64,000 nt of DNA from a virus (lineage: Duplodnaviria; Caudoviricetes): positions 1,656 through 65,655 of IMG/VR virus record IMGVR_UViG_3300028025_004842; one strand, given 5' to 3'. Shown piece by piece: positions 22,621 to 42,181 of the stretch. Every line of letters starts with the position of its first letter. The stretch's first letter is position 1. The notes beneath the pieces were generated by a model, which was not told the DNA's origin, did no database searches, and was given only the letters and a program-made list of their open reading frames with translations. Made by a program: the position numbers and the translations under genes.

Positions 22621-23822
22621 TAGTTGTATAATGTATAATAAACTAATACTTCTGCTGTAGCTGTTCCGCCTGTTGGATTACCCGTAGATGTAGCAATGTA
22701 CAAATCACTTGCTTTACCTACCTGATATGCTGTCGTTCCTAAGTTTAAAAAGAACGCTTGGTATCCTCCAGAACTCGTTGCTCCCCATACTCCATCAGCC
22801 ACCATCAAATCATCGGTAGCCATTTGAAAGTAAATTCTAGCGTCTGTATTTGTTCCATATGACGTTGCTGCGCTCATCAATATTACAATATTGTGTATGA
22901 TAGCGAAGTTAGCAAGCGTATCAAGAATCTTGATTGGCGTAGTGAAACTTGCTAATATCTGTGCTGACGACAAGCTTGTTACAGCCAATTGCATTACAGG
23001 CGTTCCTACGGCGAAATTATCAGCCGTCAACAATCCCGTTGTCAATGTCGTTCCGTTGCGTTGTAATACACCGAAATCCGTAGGGAATCCAATATCCGTA
23101 GGAGCAGCAGTAGCATTCGTAGAGTTACCCATTATAGTACGTGCTACCATAGGAGTAATGTCAGCAGTTGATACTGGTCTTGACGTAGATGCTGCCACCC
23201 ATGTCGAAACCCCATCAAACGTAGCAAGGATGATGACACCACCATTAAGCGCTTGGTTAGCATTGATGCTGATGCCAAACACTGTTAGTGTATTAGCGCC
23301 TATCGTAATGCCACCTGCAATCTCTATCTGAAACTGACTTCCAGCTTTGATACCCGTAGTGCCTGCTGTTACAGTGTAATTAGATGTTAGCGTTACAGTG
23401 CCTGTCAATCGCTGATATGACGTATCTACGCCTGCTACTAATGTCTTTGTTCCACCAACAGGGACAACAATATCCGTTACCCCTTGCGCTGCTTGTGGTT
23501 GGTCTTTTCCATCAGCGAAATACTGAACGCTCCACGTAGTGCCATCGTAATAGCAACTGAATGTACCATTTTGGTTCACTTGGTCTTGCGCCATCGTAAC
23601 CCCTGCTATAACAACACTGAATGTGCTTATTGATAGATTGGCTTCCCAACGTAGAGAAAAGGATGATATAAACCCTGCCGTTACTGTAGGATTTATAACA
23701 ACATTCCCTAGCAATGTAACAGGAGCTGTAGTATAAGCTAATACATCATATGCCTGACCTAGTGGCGTTGTATTATCAAGAGTTAATCCTGATGCGGTTA
23801 TTTGTTGTCTAATGTAGTTCAT
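22620..23822 (-). CDS. Tail fibre-like structural protein
   Basis: T/A/G/V-rich with two repeated beta modules ending YDGTTW / FDGVSTW. Confidence 0.65.
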   Translation of the reverse strand: MNYIRQQITASGLTLDNTTPLGQAYDVLAYTTAPVTLLGNVVINPTVTAGFISSFSLRWEANLSISTFSVVIAGVTMAQDQVNQNGTFSCYYDGTTWSVQYFADGKDQPQAAQGVTDIVVPVGGTKTLVAGVDTSYQRLTGTVTLTSNYTVTAGTTGIKAGSQFQIEIAGGITIGANTLTVFGISINANQALNGGVIILATFDGVSTWVAASTSRPVSTADITPMVARTIMGNSTNATAAPTDIGFPTDFGVLQRNGTTLTTGLLTADNFAVGTPVMQLAVTSLSSAQILASFTTPIKILDTLANFAIIHNIVILMSAATSYGTNTDARIYFQMATDDLMVADGVWGATSSGGYQAFFLNLGTTAYQVGKASDLYIATSTGNPTGGTATAEVLVYYTLYN

Positions 23823-24592
23823 TATACTGCTGATATTTTATCAATCGTTATTGACTTAAAGTACACTTGATTCACCACTGCTTGATACAAGTCAGTATAT
23901 ATAGTATTTAGCACCGTAAAATCTAATCCAGTTAAACTCCTTTGATATGTATATTGCTGATACCCTATATCACTTGTGCTTAAGCTTGCTATATTCATAT
24001 CAGATGTAACTCTACATAATGCTGTGGTTGCTGATGTTTTTATAATTTCAAGCTTAGTATTATATTGAAAAGATGTACTTGCTGTAAACATATATATTTC
24101 TTGACTTAATGGAGACAATGTACATGATACACCAACTGTTGTACCAACACCCCATCTAATCCTTCTTTGCGCTTTAAATAAATTTGCTGGAATTGTATTT
24201 TGTATCAAATACATTGACACTAAATTTACAACTAAAGCATCTCCATCACCAAGTAGTGTATTTGCAGGAATTGCAACATCATGCTGTTGAACCCAATTAT
24301 TTATTATCGTTGATGAAAAGAAATCTATAGGCATACTATACAACCTACTCACACCATCAACTCCATTGCCCCCAGGAGTACCTGCTGCGCCTTCCGGAAT
24401 CTCAAAGTCAAATATAGCAGCGCCTGATGTACCTACATTAGTTACTGTAGCAGGATCGCCTGGATTAACAGTCGTAACAGTTCCTACAGCTATAGTCGCC
24501 GCAGCACCTGGCGCTCCCGTATTCCCTGCCACATTCGTGCTTAGAATAGGTATGCTTAAACATCCTAAATTTGGTAAACAGCAATCTGACAT
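23822..24592 (-). CDS. Collagen-like tail fibre protein
   Basis: GxxGxxG stretches flanking ATIAVGTVTT..PG..ATVTNVGT..AAIFDF.IP. Confidence 0.7.
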   Translation of the reverse strand: MSDCCLPNLGCLSIPILSTNVAGNTGAPGAAATIAVGTVTTVNPGDPATVTNVGTSGAAIFDFEIPEGAAGTPGGNGVDGVSRLYSMPIDFFSSTIINNWVQQHDVAIPANTLLGDGDALVVNLVSMYLIQNTIPANLFKAQRRIRWGVGTTVGVSCTLSPLSQEIYMFTASTSFQYNTKLEIIKTSATTALCRVTSDMNIASLSTSDIGYQQYTYQRSLTGLDFTVLNTIYTDLYQAVVNQVYFKSITIDKISAV

Positions 24593-24612: not shown

Positions 24613-25248
24613 TTAACATCCACACCCACAGCCACAAGACAAGCATAAGCTCGCCATTGCATCCACTTGTGCGTCAACAAAATCTTTATCACCCAAACTT
24701 ACGCCTCCCAATAGGTACTCGTAGTTTAAGAATATCTTAATCTGATTCTCAGTCGTTACATGACCTGCTGCACCTCTCACCACTGTATCATCCTTACAAC
24801 GCTTTGATAAGCACGTAAAGAACACCCACTGCTGATTGATAAACGTATCAGTTCCATCTGAGCATTCATACGTTACTAAGTATGAGCCATCAGATAAATC
24901 GCTACTAGGGCTTGAATTAAATAACAACTCGCTATTGAACTCTAAGTTGAAGAATGGGAATATTGTGCTGTTAAGCAATGGTAGTACATTTACTACAACG
25001 CCAAACTCATCCATTCTAGTAGCGGCTGTAATTACATCATTCGCTATCGTAAAATCAAACGTAATAGGATATATATAACCCTTCGGGGTAATCTGTATTC
25101 TTGCAAACGTTATGTCCGTAGTAAGCGTGTTAGGCGCTCCCCATCCCCCTTCATTGGTAACAGCATCATATACTCCTGTCGTGTCATTGAATAACGCAGT
25201 CTTGCAATCGCATTGTTGGGCAAGACAGAAATTTAGTGATACTCCCAT
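24613..25248 (-). CDS. Tail hub-like structural protein
   Basis: F.DTTG.Y....N.GGWG.PN motif and CxxCGCGCGC end typical of Bacteroidota/crAss-like phages; TAAATTTG promoter at 25273-25280. Confidence 0.6.
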   Translation of the reverse strand: MGVSLNFCLAQQCDCKTALFNDTTGVYDAVTNEGGWGAPNTLTTDITFARIQITPKGYIYPITFDFTIANDVITAATRMDEFGVVVNVLPLLNSTIFPFFNLEFNSELLFNSSPSSDLSDGSYLVTYECSDGTDTFINQQWVFFTCLSKRCKDDTVVRGAAGHVTTENQIKIFLNYEYLLGGVSLGDKDFVDAQVDAMASLCLSCGCGCGC

Positions 25249-25313: not shown

Positions 25314-28300
25314 TCATTGCTTTTTTTCTTCAATAGCATCAACATATGCTTCAAGCTTTTCTCTAATATTCGTAGGGAATTCCAAGAATAGATATTTCTT
25401 ATCCCATGAATTGATTGAGCGTATAGCTGACCTGATGTACATCTCTTGCGATTGCATCTCCTGTATATCATTTATAATGGCCACCTTCTTACAAATAGAA
25501 TACAACGATGTCATACACTCTTTGTATTGTCCATTGTTATCGAACTTCATCAACTGATTCATGTTCGTTTGTCCCTCTTCTGTAACATGGTCAAATATAG
25601 TCTTCACCATCTTACCCATCGTTTCATTCGCCTTTTGATTCTCTTCGGCGGTCAACTCTAAATTGTATTTGATTATGCTAGGATTGAGCTTATAATCTCC
25701 CCCTTTCTTAATTGATTCAGCTTGCAATCGCTTATTCCCTTTAAGCTCCAATATAGTCTTCTCTGTTTCTGCTTCGGATACTGATGAATAGTATTTATAT
25801 CTTTCTCCCTTAACCGCTTTCTCCTGCTCTGATTCGTAATCACTCTCTATTCCTATTACATCAGGAATAGTAGTGGAGCTTTGTACTACTGGATAATAGT
25901 TGTGCATCGTGTGCATCTGCATGTATGGATCGTCTTCATACGCTCTATTGAACGGAAGAGATACTTCTCCTTTGTCAAATTGAAACATATCAAAACCCAT
26001 AAATGGCCCTACCGCTTTTAATTCCTCCTCTACAGGACGACCAAAGCAATCAGTCTTATTGCTTCGTAATGCGCCATCTGTAAATGCTAAATTGATTGCC
26101 ATCTTTTCAAATACGTCAGTAGCTAACTTATTAGGATTACCATTATAAGCATCGTAAGCATTCTGTGCATCCTTCTGTAATCCCGAAAGAGGAACAAAGG
26201 ATTGTATCATATTGGCAAATACATTCTTTCCTGTTTCTATAGTTCTTTCAAATCCGCCCTTGTTCGATTCTTGTGTTAATTGCATTAGGTCGGATAGCGT
26301 CTTGTACTGCTGTGACATAGAACTGTAATTCATAACGCCTGATAATGTATTCATCATATACATTCCAATAGCTCTATTTAATCCTTCATCATCTTCTACA
26401 AATGGTTTTCTGATTCCATCTACAGCTCTTGATGTTTCGAATACACGATAATTATCTAATACAGCAGCAGCAGAGATAGCCCCGTAGAATGGAGATATCA
26501 TCCAATTGTATTGCTGAACTCCATCAATATAAATATATCCACCTTTAATTGGGTCTCCCGAAGCATCAAGTAATCCACGCCCCTCCATTTCTTTCGTTGC
26601 GATGAATGTACCCTTTCCTTTTGCTGCCTTTTCTATGCGCTTATCATCGTCATCATCACCCCCTCTTAGTTTCATCAACATAGCCACAAGTCCTGCTGTT
26701 ATAGCATACGCAGCAAACATTGATTCTCTCAATCTCGCTTGATCCATCTTCAACATGAAGTCAAGCTTATATGACATATTCTGTTCTTTCGGCGTTAGCC
26801 CTCTCTTACCTGTTCTTTTATATTTAATACTCCTTAATGTACTTAGCAAAGGGTCGTATTTTATATACAATGAGAATCCATTAGCAACAGCGTTATTGAA
26901 CAATGGCATTAATGTAGAATGTTTTAATGGCGACATTTTACCACTGCTTATGTAATTCAATACATCAGCTAATTGCCCAGGCGTTCCTTGTGGTCTTCCT
27001 AAGAATGATATCTCCCTTGTGTTCGCTGATATATAACGATTGATTTCTTTTTGATATTCTTCTGATATCTTCAATGCGTCATTAGTCGATAATGCAGGAT
27101 TTAAGTTTTGGTTTAATTGTACCAATCTTTCCATTACTCCTTCTGAAAGAAGCTCATACATACGAATCTTTGTTTCGTTATATATCCTAGCTTCCTTTGT
27201 TCCTATCTTCATTAACCCTGGGTCTTGTGGGAAAGCATCAGTGGATGAGAATCCAGAATCCTTCCATAACTGACTATTACGCATCTCTTGCATAGCCTTT
27301 GAAAATGCAGCAGTTACTGTAGTTTCATCTCTCCCAAGCAATGCTGTTACATCTTGGTATATCGCTCTCCTTGATTTATCAATTTTATTCTTCTTATACA
27401 ACTCCTTCAATAATGCCCCGTATGCTTGTCTTGATGTTATAGATGTAGCAAGGGGAATCGTTAAAGCATCTACAACGGCGAATGCTCTTGATGAACCAAC
27501 AAGAAACACTTTAGATAATGCACGTTTAATTTTGCTTTTCTGATTTAATATATCAGTTTCTATATCAGAACGCCCTTCTTTATTTATACCTATAGAACCA
27601 AATGTCATATTATCTCTAGTAGGACTTACCTCTAAGATAATAGGCTGATTTGTTACAGGGTCTATAACTGATGTTTTTAGCGTATTAAATGTACCACCTA
27701 GCTTTATATCCATTTCCCTCATCATCTGCATCACCATCTTTGGAAATGTTTGAAATACGTTGGATATAATAGCTTTGTTCAATATTGATGCTCTTAATAG
27801 CAAGTTGTTAAATTGATATGCTGCTATGTAATTGAACGTCTTAATATTTCTCCCTATGATACCTCCGCTTGCTTTAGCTTTTAATGTATTGATATAATTA
27901 TTAAAAGCATTGTTTGCGTTAGCTAATGCGAATGCTCCCTTTGTTCTTGCCGCAGCTACATTTTCTGCAAGCTCCGTCAGCTTAGCTATATTCTCAGGAG
28001 TTAAGATTGGTAAGCCGTATTTAACAGCAAACTTATCTATGTACCTATCTCCCTCTAATACTCCGAACAATATCTGTTTTACTATTGCAGGGTTCTTACT
28101 TTCAGATATAGAAGGTTTTTTTTCTGCGTATACTCTCGCTAATGCCCTATTCATTTGCCATGATGCAATTTCCTCATACGTTTCCATGAACGCATCAATG
28201 GCTTTATTCACTTGCGCATCGGTCATTTCGTTTTCCTTCAACGCCTGATTGATACCTCTTAGATTCGTAGTAACAAGTTCTCTCACTTGCTCCCTCGTTG

Positions 28301-29681
28301 CATCAACAGCAACCTTTCCGTCTTTTCCTACCAATTTAAGAAGCTCCGAAAGTCCACTTCCTTTTGCTCCATTCTTATTGAGATGAACACCAAATGAAAC
28401 TAATACGTCTAATGCTTTCTTTATTCTAGGATTTGAATATTTAGATAAGATTGTTGTTGGGTCAATATCCTGTCCAGTAACAAGATTGGCGATATCTGTA
28501 AATACCTCTGTACGTATTTTCTTTGCATCTACTGCTACTTCTTTGGTTTTCTGCTCCCCATCAAATCCAAGCTCATCTTTAACGTCATTAGTTGCCTTAT
28601 TCCTAACTCTATCAACCATCATAAATGGAATCATTTGAGCTAAGTAATTACGCATTGACAATCCTTGCGCTATATATGTTCCGTAGTTTTGGTATTCTTT
28701 ATTTGCTAATTCAAAAGCCTCTGTTGTACTAGCATCCTGCCTTGCTGAATATGCAGCCATTGAATCAATCAATCGCTGTGCGAATATTGCATTGATTATA
28801 TCAGGATGAAGCTCTTGATTTTTAGCTAATTTATATGCTACATTACCAGTTCTATCGGCATCCATCAATGCTATTGCATCAGCCATTACTTTCTTCTGAT
28901 TGCGAACTTCGTAATTCTTTCCAGCTTCTACAATATCAGCTAAATCATTTCTTTCTTGTTTGCGCAATCCTGCTACAAAATCTTTAGCAGTCTTGGATAC
29001 TTTAAGCTGTCCACTTCCCCTTTGAGATTCTTCAACCTCATCGGAATATCGAGCCATTTCTTCTGTTAAATCTTTCTCTATATTCTCCTTCTGACTATCA
29101 GTTAATCCTGCGTAATCTTCATTTGCTCTTAACGATTCAATAGCAGCATTAATAATATCAATAAACTTACCACCATTTTCTGCAACAAGGGCAGCAGCTT
29201 CTAAGGCTGCATCTACCGCTTGTTCAAGGAATGGTAATGATGAATATGTTTCTCCTCTGTTCTTTAATTTAGCAGCACGCAATTTCTCCGCAAACAACTT
29301 ACCCTTTTCAGTATTAGTCATCGGCTTGGCTTCCTCCTGCACAATTGGTGCTACAACATCAGCAGCCTCCTGTGCAAGTGCTTCTCCAAGCATATTGAAC
29401 ACAGCAACAACATCGGGAGTTCTTACTTCTTCGGGGATCGCCTTGCTTGATTTAGAGCGATTGCGACTGCCTGCTTTTGGTCTTTCCCCGCCTTTATCTC
29501 CTTCTTTATATTCTTGCTGATTGTCTCCTTCGACTTTCCCTTTAGTAGCGGCATCGTATTTAGATTTTAGTGTTGGTGATTCTTTTGTTAGCTCTGCAAT
29601 GTTATCCATTACGTACTGACGTGCCTGAGTGAAATCAAGCACTGTTCCGTCCTTTAATGTGTACTTACATGGATTAGCCAT
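25314..29681 (-). CDS. Giant helical putative ejection (internal virion) protein, 1455 aa
   Basis: Size, helical composition and position at the end of the ejection-protein block; no RNAP motif seen. Confidence 0.7.
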   Translation of the reverse strand: MANPCKYTLKDGTVLDFTQARQYVMDNIAELTKESPTLKSKYDAATKGKVEGDNQQEYKEGDKGGERPKAGSRNRSKSSKAIPEEVRTPDVVAVFNMLGEALAQEAADVVAPIVQEEAKPMTNTEKGKLFAEKLRAAKLKNRGETYSSLPFLEQAVDAALEAAALVAENGGKFIDIINAAIESLRANEDYAGLTDSQKENIEKDLTEEMARYSDEVEESQRGSGQLKVSKTAKDFVAGLRKQERNDLADIVEAGKNYEVRNQKKVMADAIALMDADRTGNVAYKLAKNQELHPDIINAIFAQRLIDSMAAYSARQDASTTEAFELANKEYQNYGTYIAQGLSMRNYLAQMIPFMMVDRVRNKATNDVKDELGFDGEQKTKEVAVDAKKIRTEVFTDIANLVTGQDIDPTTILSKYSNPRIKKALDVLVSFGVHLNKNGAKGSGLSELLKLVGKDGKVAVDATREQVRELVTTNLRGINQALKENEMTDAQVNKAIDAFMETYEEIASWQMNRALARVYAEKKPSISESKNPAIVKQILFGVLEGDRYIDKFAVKYGLPILTPENIAKLTELAENVAAARTKGAFALANANNAFNNYINTLKAKASGGIIGRNIKTFNYIAAYQFNNLLLRASILNKAIISNVFQTFPKMVMQMMREMDIKLGGTFNTLKTSVIDPVTNQPIILEVSPTRDNMTFGSIGINKEGRSDIETDILNQKSKIKRALSKVFLVGSSRAFAVVDALTIPLATSITSRQAYGALLKELYKKNKIDKSRRAIYQDVTALLGRDETTVTAAFSKAMQEMRNSQLWKDSGFSSTDAFPQDPGLMKIGTKEARIYNETKIRMYELLSEGVMERLVQLNQNLNPALSTNDALKISEEYQKEINRYISANTREISFLGRPQGTPGQLADVLNYISSGKMSPLKHSTLMPLFNNAVANGFSLYIKYDPLLSTLRSIKYKRTGKRGLTPKEQNMSYKLDFMLKMDQARLRESMFAAYAITAGLVAMLMKLRGGDDDDDKRIEKAAKGKGTFIATKEMEGRGLLDASGDPIKGGYIYIDGVQQYNWMISPFYGAISAAAVLDNYRVFETSRAVDGIRKPFVEDDEGLNRAIGMYMMNTLSGVMNYSSMSQQYKTLSDLMQLTQESNKGGFERTIETGKNVFANMIQSFVPLSGLQKDAQNAYDAYNGNPNKLATDVFEKMAINLAFTDGALRSNKTDCFGRPVEEELKAVGPFMGFDMFQFDKGEVSLPFNRAYEDDPYMQMHTMHNYYPVVQSSTTIPDVIGIESDYESEQEKAVKGERYKYYSSVSEAETEKTILELKGNKRLQAESIKKGGDYKLNPSIIKYNLELTAEENQKANETMGKMVKTIFDHVTEEGQTNMNQLMKFDNNGQYKECMTSLYSICKKVAIINDIQEMQSQEMYIRSAIRSINSWDKKYLFLEFPTNIREKLEAYVDAIEEKKQ

Positions 29682-30175
29682 TATACGCCTCGTTGTTGGT
29701 CAAACAATAACTCCCCTGCACTATTCCCCATTATTCTATCTAATGTAGACAATAAATCTCCTGCTTCGCCAATGCTCTTACGTTGTGTTTCCACAAAGAA
29801 CAACAACTGCTGATGTATTGTAGCGTCATCGCAGTCCATATACCAATCATTATAGAACTCACCTAACGTCACCTCTTTGGTGTAATACAGCTCAAAAGCC
29901 GAACGTAAAGTTGGAATAGCATCCTTCATAGCTTTCACCATTGGAACGTCTGCTACATCGCCTCTATCGTTCACGAAGTCCACCCATATCTGATAATGCT
30001 TTAACTCATCCTTCGATTCCTTTTGGAAGAATGCCGTACTACCAAACCATCCTAATCCCTGTAGTTGATTAGCAATGTGCTTGTATGTATTGGAAGCGTC
30101 AAGTTCGTATCCGATGGCTTCGTTAATCTTCTTTTTGTATTCTGTACTAAGTAATGATGTTCTCATAATCAGCAT
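29681..30175 (-). CDS. Ferritin (non-heme, FtnA-like)
   Basis: INEAIGYEL.AS..Y; FFQKESKDELKH; four-helix length; likely start at MRTS (30166). Confidence 0.85.
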   Translation of the reverse strand: MLIMRTSLLSTEYKKKINEAIGYELDASNTYKHIANQLQGLGWFGSTAFFQKESKDELKHYQIWVDFVNDRGDVADVPMVKAMKDAIPTLRSAFELYYTKEVTLGEFYNDWYMDCDDATIHQQLLFFVETQRKSIGEAGDLLSTLDRIMGNSAGELLFDQQRGV

Positions 30176-30585
30176 TCTATTTTGGTGAATATTCCTTTCG
30201 CTTTTAACTCATCAGCGATGGCTTCAAAGTTACTACTTATTGCTTTAGCTACAGCAGCATCCTCTCCGTACTTTTCTTTGAATGCTTTGTTCGCCTCTGC
30301 CTTGCTCTTTATACTTTTACCTTTATTCGTAGAATCGAAATCATCGAAGATGTTTGCTTTCTTCTCCTCTGCTTTTGCTTTTGCTTCCGCCTTTGCCTCC
30401 GCTTTCTTCTCACGTATCAACAATGGATCACCCTCGTTGAAAGCGTTGTCATAACGAATGGATTTTAGATACGGAGAGTTGTCTACAACCTCATCCTCCA
30501 AATGCAATGTGTCGAGAAATCGCTTTATGAAATCTGTTTTAAAGAATACCCTTTCTCCGAATGTTACCCTACAAGGTTTGCCCAT
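30169..30585 (-). CDS. 138-aa putative adaptor carrying both N-terminal 'PC' and C-terminal 'KGI...C' modules
   Basis: N-terminus resembles that of the 1455-aa protein; C-terminus resembles that of the 1187-aa protein; EAKAEAK helical linker. Confidence 0.7.
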   Translation of the reverse strand: MGKPCRVTFGERVFFKTDFIKRFLDTLHLEDEVVDNSPYLKSIRYDNAFNEGDPLLIREKKAEAKAEAKAKAEEKKANIFDDFDSTNKGKSIKSKAEANKAFKEKYGEDAAVAKAISSNFEAIADELKAKGIFTKIEC

Positions 30586-30597
30586 ATCAATAATTTC

Positions 30598-31074
30598 TTA
30601 ACGTAATCTTCCTGAACTTAATGTTTTCATGTAATCAGCCTGCTTCTGCATTTGTCCCATTTTGTAATCTCGCTCCTTCGCTGCTACGGCTTTCTTTGCT
30701 TCAGTCGCTTTAAACTCTGCTGCATCGCTCGCTGCTTGCTTCTTTAGCTTACTTCCCTTCAACCATCCTACTGTTGCACCTACTGCCGCACCAACACCTG
30801 CCCCTACTAACGTACCAACTCCAGGAATAGCACTACCAAGTGAAGCTCCCATTGACGCTCCTTTGAGCGCACTAGCTCCTGCCATCTTCGCCACAGTACC
30901 CTTCTCGAACTCCGGAGGAGCTTGCATAGGCTCCATCTCAGGATACTGCTCCTTAAAGTAATTGTTAGCATTGTCCAACGTACCTTGGTCTTGCATCTTT
31001 TCCGCAATGTCATTATAACCCATCGTTGGATAGTGGTTATACTGCATGTAGTTTACGTACGGGTCTCTTGACAT
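30598..31074 (-). CDS. Glycine-zipper putative ejection protein
   Basis: GASMGASLGSAIPGVGTLVGAGVGAAVG. Confidence 0.7.
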   Translation of the reverse strand: MSRDPYVNYMQYNHYPTMGYNDIAEKMQDQGTLDNANNYFKEQYPEMEPMQAPPEFEKGTVAKMAGASALKGASMGASLGSAIPGVGTLVGAGVGAAVGATVGWLKGSKLKKQAASDAAEFKATEAKKAVAAKERDYKMGQMQKQADYMKTLSSGRLR

Positions 31075-31075
31075 A

Positions 31076-34000
31076 TTAATTACAATCTATTTCAATTATA
31101 CCTTTTCTTTGCAATTCTCTCAACGCTTTGTCAACCATCGCCTCTGTTGGTTTTTCTTTCAACATTCTAATTGTATCCTTATCAACATTCTTATTAACGG
31201 CAGCTTGCAAATCACGATATATCTGCTCTAGTTCAGCATTAGCTTGGAACTTATCCTCTACTGATTCTACTCCCTCTTGCGCTGGGAATGCTTGTGGTGC
31301 TTGTTCGGATGTAGGGGTGGTGGTTTCGGCTTGTAGCGTTGGTAAGTATTTTTTTACGTCAATAATTTGCCCTGCTTTTTTAGTTGGTATTCTAACATGG
31401 GCTTCATCACCAAACGTATCGTCTATTTGTATACTTTCAATAGGTACTTTTAACTTAACTATAGATTCTCCATACCCTTCATTCTGACCTGTTTCTTTAG
31501 TGGAAAAGAATACGCCATCTTCAAGACCTTTCATCTTGCCTGTGCTTTCTATTTCCTTTTTGTTCTCAGGAGTTGTTCTATGGTATATAGTAACCATACC
31601 ATCATTATCAATCTCTGCTTTGTTATCATTAAGCTCATCAGCTAAATCCTGTGCATCTAAAAGTTTATCTCCTTGAACTCTTTTAGATATACTTTCTTTG
31701 GCTGCTTCTAAAGGCGATACTTTTTCCTCACCCTTCGCTTCTTGGGTGGGTAGGGATTGTTCTACTTCTTTATCGTCAAAATTTTGGTCAATAAAACGAA
31801 TAGCATCCCTATGTAGTCCTTGTTCTTTTAATTTGTCTAAAACTTCCTGTTTATTAGTTGCACCATCTTTTATTGCCGTATTAATATACTCTTGCCCCTT
31901 TGCAATTTTATCATCAAAAGAAATGTCTTTTTCTATAAATACAGGTATCAATTTTTCACCTCTTTCTCTTGCAACAACAGCCCTGTTTCTGCCCTCTTGT
32001 TTATGCGCCTGCCCATTTTCTTTTAATGACAGATACGGCATATTTATCTTATCCCCCTTATTTATACCTTCAATAATACTTGCCTTTTTCTCGTCAAGCA
32101 CGTTTAGGTCGGTGTTGCTTCTTGTTATATCATCCCTTACTTTTTTCAAATACGCATCTGGCGACATCATTACAACCTCACCGCTTACTCCTTTATAGAA
32201 GTAATTATAGCCATCATCTTCCAACAAACCGTCTAACCCACTTATTCCTGTTTTTTTAGGATTAAACATTCCTTTGTAACTTTCCACATCTCCCTCTACT
32301 CCACTCTCACCCTTCGCTTCTTCTGCAACGGGGGCTTGTGCTTTCAGCTCTTTCTCTTGTTCTAATAGCGGCGTGATTACCTCATCATACTTATCGTATA
32401 TCTCTTTCTTTGCTACTTCGTCATTAGGGTCAATAGCTTCGTTCTCCGCTTGCTCCTGCTCTCTTAGGTTTGCTATAGCATTCTCTACCTCTGGAAGAGT
32501 TTGTGGTGCTTCTTCTGTTGGAAGATTCTTACCCTCTGCAATCTCACCCAATCTATTATTCACCTCATCCAACCTATCCTGTAAAGGCTTCGCCATAGCA
32601 GGATTAGTCTGTTCTATCTGCTGCTCTAAATCTTGCTGTTCAAGAACTAACGCTGTTGCCTCTGCTCTTGCAGGTTCACTCTCTACTACAGGAGGAACAG
32701 TCGCTGCTGCTTGCTTTGTCTTTTCAAGCATCTCCACCATCTGCTGCTTCTGCTCAGGTGTTATATCGTTAGCTACAACGGAAGCATCAAGCTGCTCCAT
32801 GAAATCAATCTCTGCCTCTGGATCACGAGCTGCCTTATTCACTACATCAGCAAATGCTTTATTTCTCCCTGCGCCAAAGAACGGCCCTAATAATCCCCCT
32901 CCTGCTGCACCTGCAATAACGCTTTCTGCTAATCCTTTTCCAAATCCTTCAAGTGATAAGTCGTCTTTGAATTTAACATCTTCCTTTAACGATGCTAATT
33001 TCTTAGAACCAAATTCAGTTGTAAATTCCGCCCCTTCTTGTAATCCTTCTTTAGCAGCCCCCTCTAATGTATTAAGAAGAACCTTCTTCCCAAACTCCAT
33101 CATCATCTGCGGAGTTCTCTTTTCAGCTAATTCCTTCGCTCCTTGCTTAATTGCGCTTTTAAGCGATGTCTTACTAAATGCTCCTGCTAATGATTCAACC
33201 CCTTTATCCCCTAAGTATGCAGCAACGATTCCTGTTGGCATAGCGAAGAACATTGATTCAGCTTTTGTAAGCCCTGCATCTCTCCCCTGCTTATATATAT
33301 CTCCATACACTTGCGAGAATCCTGCTGCTTGCGCTCCTGTAGCCCCTGCTGCTGCTCCGCCACCAAACGTCATAGCAACGCTTCCTAATAGATTTCCTAA
33401 TAGCTGTGATGTGTTATATACATTGACATCATCCATCAACGATACATTCGCTTGTGGGCTATACTTAGCAACATCAACAGACACTTTATCTGCTAGATTG
33501 AATATAGCGTCAGACACTACATTTCTATCCGTTGGTAATGGTGATGGTAGTACATCAATCACAGCCCCAAGTGTCTTTAATAATGCAGGAGCTGTTGCGT
33601 TCCATGTAGAAGCAGCCATTACATCAGAAGGACTTCTTGGATTTATAATGGTTGATGGAATCAATCCCTTTAGATTTGATTGAACACCAGCTCCCATTGT
33701 CTTAATGAAGCGTGCGTTCTGCTGATATTTGTTTAGTTGGTCATTGTAATCACTAGCAGCTTGATTGTAGTTAGCTTGTGTCTGCTGCAATTGTTCAGAA
33801 AGCATTGATGCTGTCTGTGAGTCAATGTTAGGATTCTGTAATTGTTGTTGTAGATTCTCACCCTCCGCTTTTATCTGTTCCAATCCTTGTGTAAGGGCTG
33901 TGATATTCTGATCTAACTGCTGATTCTCTGCACTCTTCTCTCTTGAAAAGTCCTTATACATTCTAGCTTGCTCCGTCTTGCGCTCTTTGATGTCGGGAAT

Positions 34001-34639
34001 AGCATTAACACTTGCTATCCTAACTTGCTTTGGCGATTTACCTGCAAGCATCTTAGCCACCTTATCATCGCTGATATTAGGTAATTCACCACCAGGAACT
34101 TGCTTACGCAACTCTTTTACATCTGCTGCTGATAATGTTTCAGGGAATGCTCCCTGTCCATCAGCATACACCTGCATAGTTTTCTGTATGTTATCTAACG
34201 ATGCTTCACTGCTTTTCTGTGGTAACGTAGATGGTTGTTCCACTCCACGTCCTTTCGTAGCCGAACCTCCACCCACCGATGCAGAAGGAACGGCTGATGG
34301 CTTTCCCAAGCCGCCAAATCCATACTTGTCAGCAGCTTCGTTTAGGTCAGCAGGCATGATTTGACTATACACATCATTCTCTACCAAAAGGGAATGTAGT
34401 TTTTTTAGCTTAATAGGGTCTCTGTATTTCTCAACAAAGTCATCAAACCTCTCAGGAGTTATCTTGCTGTATACATCATTATCTACAAGTAATGAATGTA
34501 GCTTTTGAAGATTCTGTAATCCTTTAGAAGGGTTAGGCTCTACATCTACCACATCTTCCTGTACATCAATAGGAGATTCCACTATTGGAGCTTCCATTGA
34601 TACTGATTCTTCTGGACTTGTAATAATTTCTTCTGCCAT
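31076..34639 (-). CDS. Polyvalent putative ejection protein with ParB-like and ART-like inserts, 1187 aa
   Basis: Coiled coil and Gly/Ala hydrophobic core (EG.QEG), MSPDAYL...QEGRNRA ParB-like segment, YHRT...GVFFST...YG ART-like segment. Confidence 0.7.
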   Translation of the reverse strand: MAEEIITSPEESVSMEAPIVESPIDVQEDVVDVEPNPSKGLQNLQKLHSLLVDNDVYSKITPERFDDFVEKYRDPIKLKKLHSLLVENDVYSQIMPADLNEAADKYGFGGLGKPSAVPSASVGGGSATKGRGVEQPSTLPQKSSEASLDNIQKTMQVYADGQGAFPETLSAADVKELRKQVPGGELPNISDDKVAKMLAGKSPKQVRIASVNAIPDIKERKTEQARMYKDFSREKSAENQQLDQNITALTQGLEQIKAEGENLQQQLQNPNIDSQTASMLSEQLQQTQANYNQAASDYNDQLNKYQQNARFIKTMGAGVQSNLKGLIPSTIINPRSPSDVMAASTWNATAPALLKTLGAVIDVLPSPLPTDRNVVSDAIFNLADKVSVDVAKYSPQANVSLMDDVNVYNTSQLLGNLLGSVAMTFGGGAAAGATGAQAAGFSQVYGDIYKQGRDAGLTKAESMFFAMPTGIVAAYLGDKGVESLAGAFSKTSLKSAIKQGAKELAEKRTPQMMMEFGKKVLLNTLEGAAKEGLQEGAEFTTEFGSKKLASLKEDVKFKDDLSLEGFGKGLAESVIAGAAGGGLLGPFFGAGRNKAFADVVNKAARDPEAEIDFMEQLDASVVANDITPEQKQQMVEMLEKTKQAAATVPPVVESEPARAEATALVLEQQDLEQQIEQTNPAMAKPLQDRLDEVNNRLGEIAEGKNLPTEEAPQTLPEVENAIANLREQEQAENEAIDPNDEVAKKEIYDKYDEVITPLLEQEKELKAQAPVAEEAKGESGVEGDVESYKGMFNPKKTGISGLDGLLEDDGYNYFYKGVSGEVVMMSPDAYLKKVRDDITRSNTDLNVLDEKKASIIEGINKGDKINMPYLSLKENGQAHKQEGRNRAVVARERGEKLIPVFIEKDISFDDKIAKGQEYINTAIKDGATNKQEVLDKLKEQGLHRDAIRFIDQNFDDKEVEQSLPTQEAKGEEKVSPLEAAKESISKRVQGDKLLDAQDLADELNDNKAEIDNDGMVTIYHRTTPENKKEIESTGKMKGLEDGVFFSTKETGQNEGYGESIVKLKVPIESIQIDDTFGDEAHVRIPTKKAGQIIDVKKYLPTLQAETTTPTSEQAPQAFPAQEGVESVEDKFQANAELEQIYRDLQAAVNKNVDKDTIRMLKEKPTEAMVDKALRELQRKGIIEIDCN
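31727..32322. repeat. 17-bp direct repeat CTCACCCTTCGCTTCTT flanking an in-frame domain
   Basis: Exact copies at 31727-31743 and 32306-32322 (both encode EAKGE). Confidence 0.85.
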
Positions 34640-37051: not shown

Positions 37052-40000
37052 TTATGGATTTTCTACGTTTCGTTGTCCTGTTCTTGTCACTACTGTCGTA
37101 TCATTTATCTTTTGCTTTTCATTAGCAGCGAAGAATGTACGTATCTTCAGCCATAGCCCTGTCATTGGCGCTGTTGGTTGGTCGTTACGCCCTTGTGAAT
37201 CGAGATTGTTTTTGATAGGGCTGAACGCTTGATTCTCACGCATAGTGAAATCTTCTCTATCTAAATACGTCTTTCTGTTGTCGATTCCATTTTCAGAAAT
37301 GAACTGCGTTTCAAACTCCACACGTTTAGGCTTCAATAGTGCTGTCTGTGCGTGTGCAATAAACTTCTTTACAGTTCTTGACATGTAGTTAATGATGTAC
37401 TCTGTAAAGCCTTCGTTTGCCTGTCCGTAGAATGTTATCTCATTAGCATCCTTATCACGATGACGATAGATGGGCAATGATGATATTTCAGGGAAGTCTA
37501 TTGGAGATTGGCTAAAGTATCTATTATTCTGCGTATGGTAAATTTTTGGATAGAACGTATAGCGATGAGTGAATGAATTCTTCTGCTCATTGAATACGAT
37601 TGTGTATGTATTGTAATAATCTAAGTTCTCCAATGATATAGCTTCCCAATACGCTTCACCCCCTGTTGTTCCAGGCTGTGTTGATGCTGTTGCTGTATGG
37701 CTTACCAAACAGAGATACAATTGAACTACTCCTTTAGTTTTTATTTGAATCTTTACTCCATACGTTTGATCTTCGTAGCTTGTAACTACTTTGTTCTTAG
37801 TATAGATCGTTCCATCCACCCACTCAGGACTATCCTTCCACGCTCTCTGCGTAATGATGAAATTCTTTCCAACGTTATCCCATACTGTTGTTATGCCTTG
37901 ATTGTCGGCAGGAGAATCTTTCCCTATCACAAAGCGCATACGCTCACGGAAGAACGTACTCATCATCTCTCTCTCCGATATGTTCACTGTTCCATCCGCA
38001 CCAAAGCGTACCACGCAGCCAAACTCATCATTCACCCATATTATGCATTCTTTTCCTGATGATGTGTATCCTTTGCACACCGACCATTTCTGATTCGTGC
38101 CAAGCATAGTAAGGCGTAACCCCTTACGAGATAATACTGATCCATCACCAATAAGTAAAGCTCCATCTTCTGCTGATTCTAATCGTCCTGTTGCATTAAA
38201 GAACTCACGAGTGAATCCTCTTTGTTGTAATGTAAATAACTCCCCATTTACAACCTCTAAGTGATTGATAGGCCCAAAGTTGTTTGGGTTATCCTGAAAG
38301 TCAAATGGAAGAAACTCCCTGTACTTATCAGTGTTGGCATTGTTAGGATTGAGCTGTGAGTAGTATTTACGTGTTATGTAGTTTCCTAAGTCATTTCCTT
38401 CGGGATCAAACACTGTTGATGCTTGAACTTGATTGAAAATGCTATATCCTGTGTTTTTGTAGTAGTAATCTCCATCAGTTGTTCCAATAGCAGGTATCAT
38501 CCAATCTGTCGGATTGTCTGGATATACAGGATATGTGCGGAATGGAGCATTAGCATCCCATTGCCTAAGATTGGTATTTACAATATTCGTTGATATGATA
38601 TTGAATGCGTATGATGACGTGTCTATTGAAATCCTTTTTCCTTGTCTAAATTGTACTTGTTGGTTGAATACATCTCCGCCAAATACCAATACTGAGGGCT
38701 GTCCATTATATGCAGTAGCTCCTGTGAATACTACAGTGTTTCCAAAGGCTTCTCTTCCTCCGTATTTATCTTTTTTTGCTCTGAATATTAAAGATTGAGA
38801 TTTACCTGTCCTTCCATTTACCGTCTGCTGTGTATTTTGTATATTAGTATCTAATTGAATAACAGGAGACCCTCTAAATAAAGTTCCATAATAATTTAAT
38901 ACGACTTGTTGTTTATAAAATATTTTTGGCTGAACTAGATTAGCAACCATAAAGCCATTGGATTCTCCTTCTCCTATATATTTACAATCTACAATATTTA
39001 CAATTTTTGCGATTGTAACTGGAAATGAACTAGGGCCGTATTGTTGCCAATATGAAAGCGTATCAGGTTGTGTAGAAGTTTCAGAAATTGTATCGCCACT
39101 GTAATATGGCAAATAACCAAAGTTTATTAATTGGTCACCTGGCAGAGATTGATTGTATTCCGTATATCCAAATAATATATCAGGACTATAGAATGAACCA
39201 ATATAATCTGTTATATCATTAAGAACTCCTGTGCTATCGTATAAAACATTGTCATCGGTAAATGTTTGCGAATTAGGATCATTCACATTCCCTAATCTTT
39301 CACCTCTTCTAGGTTCTATAAACACCCCTGCTGCAATTACTTCTGGAACTCTTTCAGCTCTCGATACTTTAACTGACTTGAATATATCTTTTACTTTAAC
39401 TCCATCAATCCGATATTCCCAATCAATATTATTTAGTTCAATATGCGTTTGATATAAATATCTTTCAGTTGGTGTAGACCCTAATGGGTCCCAATCACCA
39501 GGAGAATATGTAAAATATTCATCTCCTACTATCTCTCTTCTATCCCCTCCATTTATATCATTAAATTCTGCTTGACCATATAATGCATAATCTGCTTGAG
39601 TAAGGAATCTCATATCAAAACAGAATACGCTATCTGTTATCTTTCCGCTATATGTTTCAGCAGATATATAGAAACGATACCATTCGTAAGGTTGATACCC
39701 AACGTATTTTGAAGTATTTTCGGGATTATAGAATTCCTCCCACATCTCTGTTCTATATGCAGCAATTACGCCCTTGTTCTTTATAGAATACTTCATTGTA
39801 AGCGCCCAATCACGAATATCTATTTCTGTGCTTGTAGTTACATTTCCATATACCAACCTATTCTCACAAAATCTATTGCTTTTAGCTCTTATAATATCAG
39901 GACGTACAGCTATTGCTGTTGTTGTATCAAAGAATGTTATATCTGGCTCATTGCCATTATGCTCCAATATTATTTCTGATTGATCTGATGCTAGTATTTC

Positions 40001-41503
40001 CTTACGGATATTAAATCCGTTTACGACAACTGTGCTTACTCCACTACTAGCATAATTAAACCCAATAAGTTCAATATACTTAAATATGCCAGGTGTTATA
40101 CCTGTTACAAGTACACGATTAATCTTTGTCGTAGTATTTATTCCTACATAATTTCCATAGATTGGATGATATGTTGTAGTATATCCTATGTATGTTGGAG
40201 CGTATGTAGGAATAGGGTTAGATAAGAAACTTAATTCAGTTGCGGCATTGGTATCAGTTAAAAACCTAACAGCATATCTCCAATTCGCAGGTGGCACAGA
40301 ACCTCCTGATTGAGCTTGTTCATAATATTCCACTACAGCAGCAGAATAGTTGATTACGTTCTTTGTCTCATCAGTAAGCGTTTCATATGTGTAGAATCCT
40401 TCGGGGTTAAGAGGCAGCAATGCCCCATCCTCTATAAATGCTCCTCTGTAAGAGAATGTACGTGGATAATTGTAGTTATCTGTGAACTTTAATAGATAGC
40501 CATTGTTATTCAATACAGCATCCGCATCTATCTGATACATCGTTCTGAAATTGAATCTCTTTGATGCTAATATCCTTGTGTACGTATAACTATCTGTTTC
40601 TCCTACGTATTGCTGGACACCTATCTGACCTACACCATATGTATTCTTGAATATTATTCCGCCGTATTTAACATTTGTTAAAACTATGCCTGTTGTTATT
40701 GATAGGAATAATGCGAAGTTATTTTGGTCAATGTAATTGACTACCCACTCTCCATTAGCTATCGCTCCAGCTCCTACAGCATTTGCAATAACAATGCTTT
40801 CTCCTGACACCAATCCGTGGTTAGGGAAATATATTCCTATTTGTCCTCCATAAGCATTATGTAAATACATTGACATTGATGCATCATATATACTACTCTG
40901 GTCGTTGTCCTGTGTTGTTGAGAATAACCACGTTGTTCCAAGCAAATCCTTTGAACCTATCTCAATAAATCCACCCTGCCCTGTAATTGAAATAGCTTCC
41001 TTAATATCATCGTTGCGTAATACATTTCCATTGTTGTCTGTCAAGACCAATGTATAATCAGAATACGCACAATTTATTGTAATATCAATATATGGCTCTG
41101 TATTGAATTGGTTATCATAAATTACACCATACCAAAATAGCTGCGAAAATGCTTCCATTATAGCATCCTTCATCCCTTGTAATGACTGCGATGGCGCTGA
41201 CCCTCCAAGTGTTTGAATCAATTGTTCATTCTTATTAATGAATTGAATTTCTATTGTTTCAAAGTTCCCATCAATATATATCCTCGTCTGTTGTTGCTGT
41301 ACTTGCTGTATGCCAATATCGCATACCAATTTATTACCCAATGCAGGAGTATCGGAGAATAATTCTCCATCAGCATTAAATTCCACATTCACCCTATCAG
41401 GATAGTTACCCTCCTTTAACTCTAGGATATCTGTATCACTATTTAACTTTCCGTTTCTTGCTCTATTAACAAGTACAGGTACTGGTTGCACTGGTGTTGC
41501 CAT
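37052..41503 (-). CDS. Tail stabilization/muzzle (nozzle) protein, crAss-like
   Basis: GKLNSD...Y.D..N start, RLVYGN, FG.I..L and FNE..N.F...Y.F.P motifs; 1483 aa. Confidence 0.75.
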   Translation of the reverse strand: MATPVQPVPVLVNRARNGKLNSDTDILELKEGNYPDRVNVEFNADGELFSDTPALGNKLVCDIGIQQVQQQQTRIYIDGNFETIEIQFINKNEQLIQTLGGSAPSQSLQGMKDAIMEAFSQLFWYGVIYDNQFNTEPYIDITINCAYSDYTLVLTDNNGNVLRNDDIKEAISITGQGGFIEIGSKDLLGTTWLFSTTQDNDQSSIYDASMSMYLHNAYGGQIGIYFPNHGLVSGESIVIANAVGAGAIANGEWVVNYIDQNNFALFLSITTGIVLTNVKYGGIIFKNTYGVGQIGVQQYVGETDSYTYTRILASKRFNFRTMYQIDADAVLNNNGYLLKFTDNYNYPRTFSYRGAFIEDGALLPLNPEGFYTYETLTDETKNVINYSAAVVEYYEQAQSGGSVPPANWRYAVRFLTDTNAATELSFLSNPIPTYAPTYIGYTTTYHPIYGNYVGINTTTKINRVLVTGITPGIFKYIELIGFNYASSGVSTVVVNGFNIRKEILASDQSEIILEHNGNEPDITFFDTTTAIAVRPDIIRAKSNRFCENRLVYGNVTTSTEIDIRDWALTMKYSIKNKGVIAAYRTEMWEEFYNPENTSKYVGYQPYEWYRFYISAETYSGKITDSVFCFDMRFLTQADYALYGQAEFNDINGGDRREIVGDEYFTYSPGDWDPLGSTPTERYLYQTHIELNNIDWEYRIDGVKVKDIFKSVKVSRAERVPEVIAAGVFIEPRRGERLGNVNDPNSQTFTDDNVLYDSTGVLNDITDYIGSFYSPDILFGYTEYNQSLPGDQLINFGYLPYYSGDTISETSTQPDTLSYWQQYGPSSFPVTIAKIVNIVDCKYIGEGESNGFMVANLVQPKIFYKQQVVLNYYGTLFRGSPVIQLDTNIQNTQQTVNGRTGKSQSLIFRAKKDKYGGREAFGNTVVFTGATAYNGQPSVLVFGGDVFNQQVQFRQGKRISIDTSSYAFNIISTNIVNTNLRQWDANAPFRTYPVYPDNPTDWMIPAIGTTDGDYYYKNTGYSIFNQVQASTVFDPEGNDLGNYITRKYYSQLNPNNANTDKYREFLPFDFQDNPNNFGPINHLEVVNGELFTLQQRGFTREFFNATGRLESAEDGALLIGDGSVLSRKGLRLTMLGTNQKWSVCKGYTSSGKECIIWVNDEFGCVVRFGADGTVNISEREMMSTFFRERMRFVIGKDSPADNQGITTVWDNVGKNFIITQRAWKDSPEWVDGTIYTKNKVVTSYEDQTYGVKIQIKTKGVVQLYLCLVSHTATASTQPGTTGGEAYWEAISLENLDYYNTYTIVFNEQKNSFTHRYTFYPKIYHTQNNRYFSQSPIDFPEISSLPIYRHRDKDANEITFYGQANEGFTEYIINYMSRTVKKFIAHAQTALLKPKRVEFETQFISENGIDNRKTYLDREDFTMRENQAFSPIKNNLDSQGRNDQPTAPMTGLWLKIRTFFAANEKQKINDTTVVTRTGQRNVENP

Positions 41504-41506
41504 ACG

Positions 41507-42181
41507 TTATAATGAAAGAACTCGTGGATGAGATAAGTTAACTGCTTTTTGGAAATTGTTTTGGAACGATTGGAAAGCATCATAACTCACCACTCTGTCG
41601 TGCTGCGCCTTCCATTCTCTTTTCCATAATGCTCCTTGTTCCGGAACGTATTGCTTTGGATAGCGTAGGTAGAAGTTCCAACATATAAACCACATTACGG
41701 CTTCCACCATGTAGTCATATATCATAATGAATCCATCCTCATCCACCTTCTTCGCTTGATACGCCACCTTTACATTTGTAGGTGCATCGTTAGGATACTG
41801 CCATATAATTGCATTGTTGTTTATCATTACGTTGCCGGAGAAGTGTCTGTTATCAGCTCCTGTTACAGCGAGATTACATTGATCCAAGAAAGCGAAATCT
41901 GCAACATAAGCACCATACGCTTTCCCATAATAATCACAATAACGCATCGCAATCACCTTAATGCAATTATCAGGAAGCATTGCTTGCCCTTGGTCAATTG
42001 GAATAGTGATGTTCTCAACGTATAGTTGTCCCAAGCTATTCAAACGCACTAAAGCACGCTGTGCTAACGTATTTATGTAAATGTCGAATGATGTACCATC
42101 GCCTATGTTTAACATCTGCTTGGCTTCTGTAATAGCGTCCTCGATGGGAACAAACTTATAATTACCTGCTGCTGCTGACAT
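41507..42181 (-). CDS. Tail ring/tubular protein
   Basis: LP....KV, Y....VDEDGF and EAV.WFI motifs; position before the muzzle gene. Confidence 0.65.
   Translation of the reverse strand: MSAAAGNYKFVPIEDAITEAKQMLNIGDGTSFDIYINTLAQRALVRLNSLGQLYVENITIPIDQGQAMLPDNCIKVIAMRYCDYYGKAYGAYVADFAFLDQCNLAVTGADNRHFSGNVMINNNAIIWQYPNDAPTNVKVAYQAKKVDEDGFIMIYDYMVEAVMWFICWNFYLRYPKQYVPEQGALWKREWKAQHDRVVSYDAFQSFQNNFQKAVNLSHPRVLSL

Follow-up and report, generated by a model that had tools for sequence, protein, structure and literature searches.

Short matched modules at the C- and N-termini of successive collinear giants, known as docking domains, order the assembly of polyketide and non-ribosomal peptide synthases through non-covalent contacts that serve catalysis. 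In the Crassvirales phages crAss001 and phi14:2 the cargo genes come after the muzzle gene, and their products, among them an RNA polymerase and its partners, were detected in virions by mass spectrometry (PMC10172136, in the sections considered here; record annotation). How crassviruses order, package and eject this cargo of ~5 MDa, including the giant RNA polymerase, is an open question. Here we analyse a 64,000-nucleotide stretch of viral DNA (the window; positions 1,656 to 65,655 of IMG/VR record IMGVR_UViG_3300028025_004842) from a crAss-like phage, in which three separately encoded proteins of 1187, 138 and 1455 amino acids (aa), named P0001, P0003 and P0005, bear matched terminal modules with a cysteine at the very end. 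The balance of the sequence evidence tips towards these proteins being joined head-to-tail by docking tags that are sealed with a terminal disulfide.

The three genes and the two small genes between them lie on the minus strand, in the following order (window positions):

31076-34639, minus strand: P0001, 1187 aa, the proposed first link, without an N-terminal cysteine and ending ..LRELQRKGIIEIDCN
31079-31243, minus strand: C-module of P0001, residues 1133-1187 (ANAELEQIYRDL...KGIIEIDCN), with the Cys1186 codon at 31082-31084
30598-31074, minus strand: P0002, a 158-aa glycine-zipper protein with no cysteine (PF13488, 1e-5), in the first junction
30169-30585, minus strand: P0003, the 138-aa two-tag adaptor, starting MGKPCRVTF.. 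and ending ..ADELKAKGIFTKIEC
30403-30585, minus strand: N-module of P0003, with the Cys5 codon at 30571-30573
30361-30402, minus strand: (EAKA)n spacer of P0003, the insert site in relatives
30172-30360, minus strand: C-module of P0003, with the Cys138 codon at 30172-30174
29681-30175, minus strand: P0004, a 164-aa ferritin (PF00210, 3.9e-15), in the second junction and overlapping both neighbours
25314-29681, minus strand: P0005, 1455 aa, the proposed last link, starting MANPCKYTL.. and without a C-terminal cysteine
29529-29681, minus strand: N-module of P0005, with the Cys5 codon at 29667-29669

The open reading frame (ORF) translations confirmed the termini of P0001, P0003 and P0005 as an earlier, sequence-only reading of this DNA had given them. 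That reading took the modules for docking domains that string separately encoded cargo into one chain; gene order, cysteine conservation and the two-tag relatives described below all speak for it, and we regard it as supported. Relatives retain an N-module of ~50-60 aa with its cysteine at residue 3-6 and a C-module of ~55 aa with its cysteine last or penultimate. In the P0001 family alignment a conserved head (~1-780) is followed by a variable effector region (~785-1100) and then by the conserved C-module.

The placement of the cysteines is the strongest result. All 19 proteins of the P0001 family (676-1262 aa) contain exactly one cysteine, at the last or penultimate position, and all 36 of the P0003 family (129-1139 aa) contain exactly two, at residue 5 and at the last or penultimate position; this second count omits the N-truncated P0059, P0060 with its different C-end and the fragments P0061-P0063. 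Among the giants that begin with an N-module (1138-1797 aa), the sole cysteine is at residue 3-6 in 17 of 29. The 40 other ORFs of the window hold 130 cysteines in 12,667 residues (1.03%), and at this background rate the probability of finding none in 1185 residues is 4.9e-6. Since P0001 has no N-terminal cysteine and P0005 no C-terminal one, all tag cysteines can pair head-to-tail.

A different account would have the terminal cysteines act within single proteins, as redox switches or protective caps that, for instance, leave cargo inactive in the particle until reduction activates it; cysteine depletion would be a consequence of the need of ejected proteins to unfold. Untagged cargo is indeed cysteine-free as well, both next to the tagged genes (no cysteine in the 516-, 270- and 158-aa products) and elsewhere (phi14:2 g068 and g070; crAss001 gp46), and the bioRxiv version of the polymerase paper, in the sections considered, reports self-inhibition of phi14:2 gp66 ahead of packaging. 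However, a lone cysteine, as found in most of these proteins, cannot make an intramolecular disulfide, and the matched modules, the gene order and the two-tag family are left unexplained, which makes this account quite improbable.

The tags are conserved independently of the bodies that they flank, as expected of docking pairs on successive products. In the P0005 family the full N-module with Cys5, MA(N/K/R)(P/N)C(K/E)YTL..., stands at the start of 22 of 26 relatives, and the remaining four begin within it, a sign of wrongly called starts or of fragments. Alignment A1 (23 sequences) has C5 and 24 other positions invariant in the first 49 residues, and C5 is likewise invariant in alignments A2 and A5; the bodies of 12 relatives with the N-module are just 21-24% identical to P0005. 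On the other side of the junction, the last 60 residues of P0001 led to 18 relatives, and C, CN or CK closes the sequence of every one. The terminal cysteines that the sequence-only reading had seen in single proteins are conserved in both families (19/19 and 36/36).

The search for the P0003 family returned 33 proteins, of which 30 were aligned, leaving out the fragments P0061-P0063 (79-104 aa). Residues 1-61 and 76-138 are nearly invariant, and the length variation falls at the (EAKA)n spacer. Relatives with both tags range from 129 to 1139 aa and carry inserted bodies at this spacer, including ART-PolyVal-like and ParB_N-like ones. The two-tag protein is, judged by these alignments, a slot for inserted effector domains. 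A wide N-module search, with profile A2 (10 sequences) against 1.84 billion representative proteins at E<=1e-3, gave 31 matches. Five were judged spurious, being repeat or unrelated proteins or lacking a scored stretch (P0075, P0081, P0083, P0086 and P0089); the other 26 all carry the module at the extreme N-terminus and none internally. Among them are P0003-type proteins of 292-1139 aa, as well as distant giants of 1138-1719 aa that share the core PCxYTLxDGxxLxYDExRxYxLxNY. Two short proteins, P0085 (119 aa) and P0088 (112 aa), combine the N-module with the ends ..LIDCIWD and ..LINCLWA and may be the adaptors of another lineage.

The inserted bodies recall the polyvalent proteins, which are packaged and injected multi-domain effector proteins of phages and conjugative elements in the sections considered of Iyer et al. 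2017 (PMC5512222). Relatives contain their hallmark domains: Kinase-PolyVal lies in the variable region of the P0001 relative P0091 (1.3e-34), and ART-PolyVal in P0073 scored 35.1 bits against a curated cut-off of 31.2. Under the cut-off were ART-PolyVal in P0065 and P0067 and a ParB_N-like domain in P0068. Polyvalent proteins, in contrast, unite many domains in one polypeptide, whereas in the window the cargo is split over three end-tagged polypeptides, and the N-module was never internal among the 26 credible matches. P0001, P0003 and P0005 themselves had no Pfam effector-domain match.

The tags belong to no known family in Pfam, PHROGs or NCBIfam; the only hints were winged helix-turn-helix (wHTH)-type matches to the P0001 C-module (GMT-wHTH, E=0.025; MksE, E=1). 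Sequence searches of solved structures with P0001 and the P0005 family gave no credible match, and a search of the ESM Atlas with P0003 no usable one. The arrangement of the tags resembles that of synthase docking domains, from which they differ in lacking a Pfam match and in a single conserved cysteine that suggests a covalent, reducible link.

In a split intein the N-half spans ~100 aa from a cysteine after the extein, and the C-half ends in Asn followed by Cys, Ser or Thr. We rejected this candidate: no intein or Hint family in Pfam matched the tags even at E<=10, the upstream cysteine is last or penultimate with nothing following, and the downstream one comes after just 2-5 residues. A lipoprotein-type N-terminal cysteine was also rejected, as no hydrophobic signal precedes it in the sequence.

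Gene order provides a second line of evidence. Eight related loci were compared with the window, two on viral contigs (L002 and L009) and six on metagenome contigs (L003-L008), giving nine loci in all. At each of the 12 junctions with enough sequence a C-module gene is followed by one small gene and then by an N-module gene, so that the co-occurrence and order supposed by the sequence-only reading are kept across ~4 lineages. The small gene is a ferritin at nine junctions and a Gly-zipper gene at three. That reading had called the intervening genes unrelated to the partners; ferritin is not random there, being present at 9/9 junctions of its type, with the Gly-zipper gene at the first junction.

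L006, L008 and L009 are the more distant loci. L009 has a single link and no adaptor: a 995-aa protein (..AGIIKKIEC), homologous to the head or N-terminal part of P0001 (E=1e-10), is followed by ferritin and by a 1303-aa protein starting MAKPCKYTLADG.., which has only the N-module in common with P0005 (47% identity over 55 residues). Tags appear to co-diverge, with one link in the L009/L006 lineage and, in the window lineage, two tag pairs that have diverged from each other.

At the DNA level, blastn displayed the junction cassettes (C-module, small gene and N-module) as conserved islands between which the bodies are replaced, and recombination breakpoints therefore lie just inside the tags. 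Window 29146-31320 illustrates this against L003, L004, L005 and L007, with cassettes 85-99% identical in DNA despite swapped cargo bodies. This identity across phages with different bodies could mean that the cassettes are kept mainly as recombination linkers and for translational coupling, the 138-aa gene being a remnant of tandem duplication and the cysteines incidental. Neighbouring genes do overlap, and a junction-spanning duplication would by itself yield an ORF made of the downstream N-end and the upstream C-end. Against this, the adaptor N-module differs between the window and L002 by 27 synonymous and 13 non-synonymous codons out of 60, and in such more distant comparisons the codon changes indicate constraint at the protein level. 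The cysteine is invariant even in lineages with otherwise divergent tags, its exclusivity goes unexplained, and in L002, in L009 and at P0001 the codon of the terminal cysteine lies clear of the start codon that follows. We consider the linker account extremely improbable. For the same lack of overlap at these three junctions we rejected the terminal cysteine as a by-product of overlap with the ferritin start codon.

P0004 is, by sequence, a full-length ferritin with a ferritin-like four-helix-bundle domain. It scored 56.5 bits for PF00210 (cut-off 24.5), and 62 solved ferritins matched it at E<=1e-3 over residues 8-161, its full length. E24, Y31, E57, H60, E101 and Q131 are invariant in six sequences and of the di-iron-site type; presumably they form the ferroxidase site. 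P0004 could be cargo, serve iron control or act as an oxidant source for disulfide formation, and no paper joining Crassvirales with ferritin was found in the literature covered. Its presence at 9/9 junctions of its type, overlapping both neighbours, invites the view that, in place of a simple direct disulfide, the two modules grip a metal ion between them or depend on ferritin as a hub, iron donor or oxidant source; a second neighbouring pair of proteins, with Cys-rich termini that resemble a metal or multi-disulfide cluster, would fit it too. Yet the first junction holds a Gly-zipper gene and not ferritin, canonical crassviruses have the terminal-cysteine pattern without ferritin, and one cysteine per tag with no conserved His provides too few ligands. 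We judge it very improbable.

The same placement of cysteines was found in known Crassvirales. In phi14:2, g067 (1797 aa) ends ..NTIC with residue 1797 as its single cysteine, the virion RNA polymerase g066 (2180 aa) runs from MACK.. to ..QECK with cysteines only at residues 3 and 2179, and g065 (1421 aa) starts MSCK.. with its single cysteine at residue 3. We sampled ten genomes: phi14:2, crAss001, DAC15, CrAssphage ZA, crAss002, FpV4, cr50_1, cr8_1, cr60_1 and 'Rudgehvirus'. The nine beside phi14:2 span Steigviridae, Intestiviridae, Suoliviridae and FpV4; eight of them were chosen from 125 records matching g066, and crAss001 was added by accession. The gene with the polymerase core was identified, and the orthology of the flanking proteins is presumed. 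End-cysteines marked all unfused junctions of this block in 10/10 genomes (13 junctions), canonically with the upstream cysteine in the last 1-4 residues and the downstream one at residue 3-5. The genes of crAss001 gp47 and DAC15 gp078 lie on the strand opposite to their presumed partners.

Cysteines are scarce in these blocks: with cr60_1 left out for its recoded stops, the polymerase cargo contained 68 in 54,567 residues (0.12%), compared with 378 in 37,366 (1.01%) for the remaining ORFs in the nine loci counted. The window and six of these loci together have 124 ORFs no shorter than 150 aa; 13 of them carry a cysteine between residues 2 and 6 and 13 within their last three residues, and most of these carriers are tagged or block proteins. 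Read with table 11, the cr60_1 cargo genes (L018 4799-26584) contain 9-55 stops in frame, consistent with stop-codon recoding; the terminal pattern nonetheless holds there (..KHCKKS, then MTCLRT..).

Two of the three block proteins are fused in several lineages (record annotation), and the phi14:2 polymerase paper (bioRxiv version, in the sections considered) describes some phages in which all three form one polyprotein. Fused FpV4 gp32 (4287 aa) has a single cysteine, at residue 4286, and therefore no junction pair is left. BLASTP placed the former junction only in this protein, near residue 1670; six other fused proteins have internal cysteines, whose positions relative to the former junction BLASTP did not place.

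By the masses given in PMC10172136, crAss001 gp47, gp50 and gp49 together amount to ~694 kDa. The window block is like the polymerase cargo (phi14:2 g067-g066-g065; crAss001 gp47, gp50 and gp49) in consisting of post-muzzle giants, which are present in virions there, and in having a C-end cysteine followed by a cysteine at residue 3-5 of the next product in proteins that are otherwise nearly cysteine-free and, in some canonical lineages, fused. It differs in that the bodies show no detectable homology, the N-ends do not align beyond the cysteine, the junctions hold small genes and the middle link is a 138-aa spacer and not a polymerase. The slot between the C-tagged and the N-tagged giant contains the polymerase in canonical crassviruses and a variable two-tag protein in the window lineage.

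For P0001, P0003 and P0005, a pattern beyond chance rests on the invariant cysteines within families, the strictly N-terminal matches, the kept order and the exclusivity of the cysteines. We propose that the C-module, a short helical bundle with a final beta-strand and the terminal cysteine, would dock on the N-module of the next product, a beta-hairpin running from the cysteine at residue 3-6 and then a helix. The last strand of the C-module would pair antiparallel with the first strand of the hairpin and bring the two terminal cysteines together, and one inter-chain disulfide between them could form once the particle reaches oxidising surroundings. The product would be an unbranched pseudo-polyprotein of 1187, 138 and 1455 aa, packaged at fixed stoichiometry and passing the tail link by link; its members would be freed when the disulfides are reduced in the host cytoplasm. 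The purge of other cysteines would fit proteins that stay unfoldable when oxidised, without mispairing. For the three window proteins the virion location, the binding, the disulfide, and the ordered ejection with reductive release are all steps that we infer. Cysteine links between separately encoded virion proteins have a precedent in crAss001 (the gp57 dimer, the tail hubs and ring proteins, and R1-R2; PMC10172136, in the sections considered here), where they stabilise a fixed shell and tail; the proposed links differ in that they would join mobile proteins end to end.

Several observations weigh against this head-to-tail chain, and the first group concerns the modules themselves. Similarity from N-module to N-module and from C-module to C-module is statistically weak. 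BLASTP between the N-modules of P0003 and P0005 gave E=0.058, and the C-module pair (P0001/P0003) went unreported. In a cross-family test, with a hidden Markov model (HMM) built from one family minus the window's own protein and run against the 357 window ORFs, the C-module models did not significantly find the other family's module (E=0.56 and 8.2), and the N-module models gave E=6.2 in one direction and no match at E<=10 in the other; the matches, where listed, sat at the correct terminus. When profiles were compared with profiles, the N-modules reached E=0.055 and the C-modules E=0.0047; the C-module alignment covers ~55 residues, and the P0001 type has 13 inserted residues. These scores suggest, without proving, that the paired modules are homologous, and the case rests on comparative evidence. 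Of the shared modules that the sequence-only reading had described, the invariant cysteines, the conservation within each family and the order stood, while the likeness between families was weaker than it had implied.

Structure prediction belongs partly on the same side. The AlphaFold2 (AF2) monomer of P0003 was of low confidence, with a mean predicted local distance difference test score (pLDDT) of 46.5, as against 49.4 for P0001, and both were too poor for fold searches. The C-module of P0001 appeared as three helices at 1135-1178 (pLDDT ~70), and in these low-confidence models the N-module is a beta-hairpin (residues 6-15) with a helix and the C-module a set of helices with a last short strand. 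For the docking contact, the C-module of P0003 (76-138) was predicted in complex with the N-module of P0005 (1-60), with their own alignments and for this one pair. The complex scored 0.47 against 0.04 for the best of three controls, with at least 95% contact agreement between runs and a partner pLDDT of at least 69. Of the 80 solved complexes used for calibration 58 reached the mark, as did 2 of the 110 mismatched pairs; with scores of 0.60 or less, just 7 of the 80 solved complexes did so, along with both passing mismatches. The score of 0.47 lies in a band where passes are likelier wrong than right unless the guess was already likely, and we graded it as weak support: the expected contact stood out from its controls, but within that band.

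The remaining points concern cysteines, sampling and chemistry. P0005 has four cysteines in total (residues 5, 1212, 1389 and 1397), and extra ones near the C-end are likewise present in its ten closest relatives (2-3 each, as in P0005) and in P0082 (1-3 over the whole group). Several canonical crassvirus proteins carry internal cysteines; the C-terminal cysteine of crAss001 gp50 is residue 2404 of 2412, nine residues from the C-terminus; and in crAss002 gp33, where the call is ambiguous, as in CrAssphage ZA, the pattern requires an in-frame Met downstream of the annotated start. The set of loci is small and interrelated (~4 lineages), and all eight added ones were recovered through the N-module. 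Between the closest loci the DNA of the ferritin/N-module junction shows 97-99% identity, with 0-1 synonymous changes in the N-module, and as this identity reflects recent shared ancestry or recombination these loci are not independent. Because the host cytoplasm is reducing, the disulfide could form only after assembly or release. Finally, homotypic pairing satisfies cysteine parity equally well.

This last point leads to an account in which the tags are packaging signals, their cysteine or module anchoring each protein to the portal, the capsid interior or the tail barrel, or making homotypic dimers with C-tags tail-to-tail and N-tags head-to-head. The crAss001 cargo protein gp45 binds the portal and tail rings, in a tail that is disulfide-stabilised (PMC10172136, in the sections considered here), and the weak grade of the complex prediction also speaks for it. 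Neither anchoring nor homotypic pairing would, however, predict the loss of the junction cysteines in fused FpV4 gp32. C-tag and N-tag genes are balanced and alternate at 12/12 junctions, one family bears both tags, and exactly these neighbours are fused, in this order, in canonical crassviruses. We regard this account as unlikely, and each of the four alternatives leaves at least one of tag alternation, the two-tag family, the fusions and cysteine exclusivity unexplained.

The position of the block agrees with a cargo role. The record comprises 65,655 bases, with an estimated completeness of 58%, and contains these landmarks upstream of the block:

37052-41503, minus strand: crassvirus muzzle protein (PF25731, 9.6e-21), the landmark for the cargo region
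41507-42181, minus strand: ring protein, a weak match

After the muzzle gene follows a minus-strand series of ORFs of 270, 516, 1187 (P0001), 158 (P0002), 138 (P0003), 164 (P0004) and 1455 aa (P0005), a late block directly downstream of the muzzle with the layout of crAss001 and phi14:2. On account of this adjacency we read P0001, P0003 and P0005 as cargo. The nearest cultured phage is Cellulophaga phage phi14:2, by a weak match of the muzzle to g071 (26% identity over 14% of the protein). Homology to its known cargo (g065, g066 and g067) was not detected by hhalign, tblastn or record search: hhalign gave E=0.54 for alignment A1 against g065 and E=0.28 for A7 against g067, a lack of body homology that also counts against the chain. 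P0003 and P0005 found no match by tblastn in GenBank phages; megablast of the region against public phage records returned no close relative, and a single-protein scan of viral contigs was likewise empty. The record, ~58% complete, contains no match to the virion RNA polymerase g066, and its ORFs of 200 aa or more lack a D[FY]DxD motif; since it is a fragment, loss of the polymerase in the window lineage does not follow.

Taken across Crassvirales, the pattern raises the possibility, to which we give somewhat less than even credence, that the virion RNA polymerase enters and leaves the particle together with its partner cargo as a single unbranched pseudo-polyprotein, joined by disulfides between lone cysteines at the chain ends. 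All other cysteines would have been purged, leaving no further links to form and a chain that can still pass the tail; reduction in the host cytoplasm would separate the parts and switch them on, and the tags of the window lineage would serve as a plug-in system for effectors. Such a chain would be a new viral route to a polyprotein, built after translation, and would explain the free evolutionary fusion and splitting of these genes. In the window lineage any effector set between an N-tag and a C-tag would enter the cell as an additional link, and the two short tags would mark injected effectors in metagenomic phage genomes. The pattern applies well beyond the window and combines known virion disulfides, terminal docking domains and polyvalent cargo; the end-only cysteines make a concrete hypothesis that can be addressed in cultured phi14:2, crAss001 and DAC15. 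No prior description of terminal cysteines in cargo or of disulfide-linked ejection proteins was found in the literature covered, which consisted of articles apart from their supplements. In the sections considered, the crAss001 atlas (PMC10172136, apart from its extended data, including Extended Data Table 2) mentions disulfides seven times, never for cargo, does not use the word 'cysteine' and drew on both reduced and untreated samples; the phi14:2 polymerase paper, in its bioRxiv version, has neither 'cysteine' nor 'disulfide' and does not mention the terminal cysteines; and the text of PMC5512222 has neither 'cysteine' nor 'split'.

Some further features of these genomes were noted. The first cargo protein after the muzzle also tends towards a lone cysteine near one end, and the pattern may reach beyond the polymerase block: a 775-aa protein of CrAssphage ZA ends ..KQSCR (L012 2797-5124), crAss002 gp30 has Cys550 of 557 residues (L013 2456-4129) and Rudgehvirus g49 has Cys747 of 757 (L019 3490-5763), and FpV4 gp30 and cr8_1 gp90 start MKKKC.. 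(L015 4096-5892) and MTKKC.. (L017 783-4331). Thioredoxin genes are annotated a few kb beyond the polymerase block, on the opposite strand, in CrAssphage ZA (L012 28078-29357), cr8_1 (L017 28659-28928) and 'Rudgehvirus' (L019 28780-29055); they are possibly relevant to the reduction of cargo disulfides after entry, or only to nucleotide metabolism. P0002, at the first junction, also matches tail-lysin and tape-measure segments in PHROGs and has the same position in L003 and L005.

The window contains a second Cys-end pair of neighbouring late proteins, at 24613-25248 and 23822-24592 on the minus strand. The 211-aa protein ends ..ASLCLSCGCGCGC, and the next one, of 256 aa, starts MSDCCLPNLGCLSIP..; its L002 relative contains a collagen-like Gly-X-Y stretch. 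Both proteins recur side by side in L002 (5793-7080), L003 (14584-15956) and L009 (11988-13521), and their Cys-rich adjoining ends resemble a multi-disulfide or metal cluster by which two tail-fibre-like proteins would be connected at their ends.

Within the N-module giant, an alternative-frame ORF of 43-48 aa (window 29426-29554, minus strand) overlaps residues ~43-86. It recurs at L002 1569-1709, L004 761-904, L006 3321-3461 and L008 871-1008, with the sequence MPLLKGKSKK.IS.NIKKE.KAGK.QKQAVAIAL.QAR.., and has a weak match to DUF6496 (E=0.03, under the cut-off). This ORF is kept in the distant L006, at 44% identity to the window copy, despite a poorly conserved main frame, and may be an overprinted gene.

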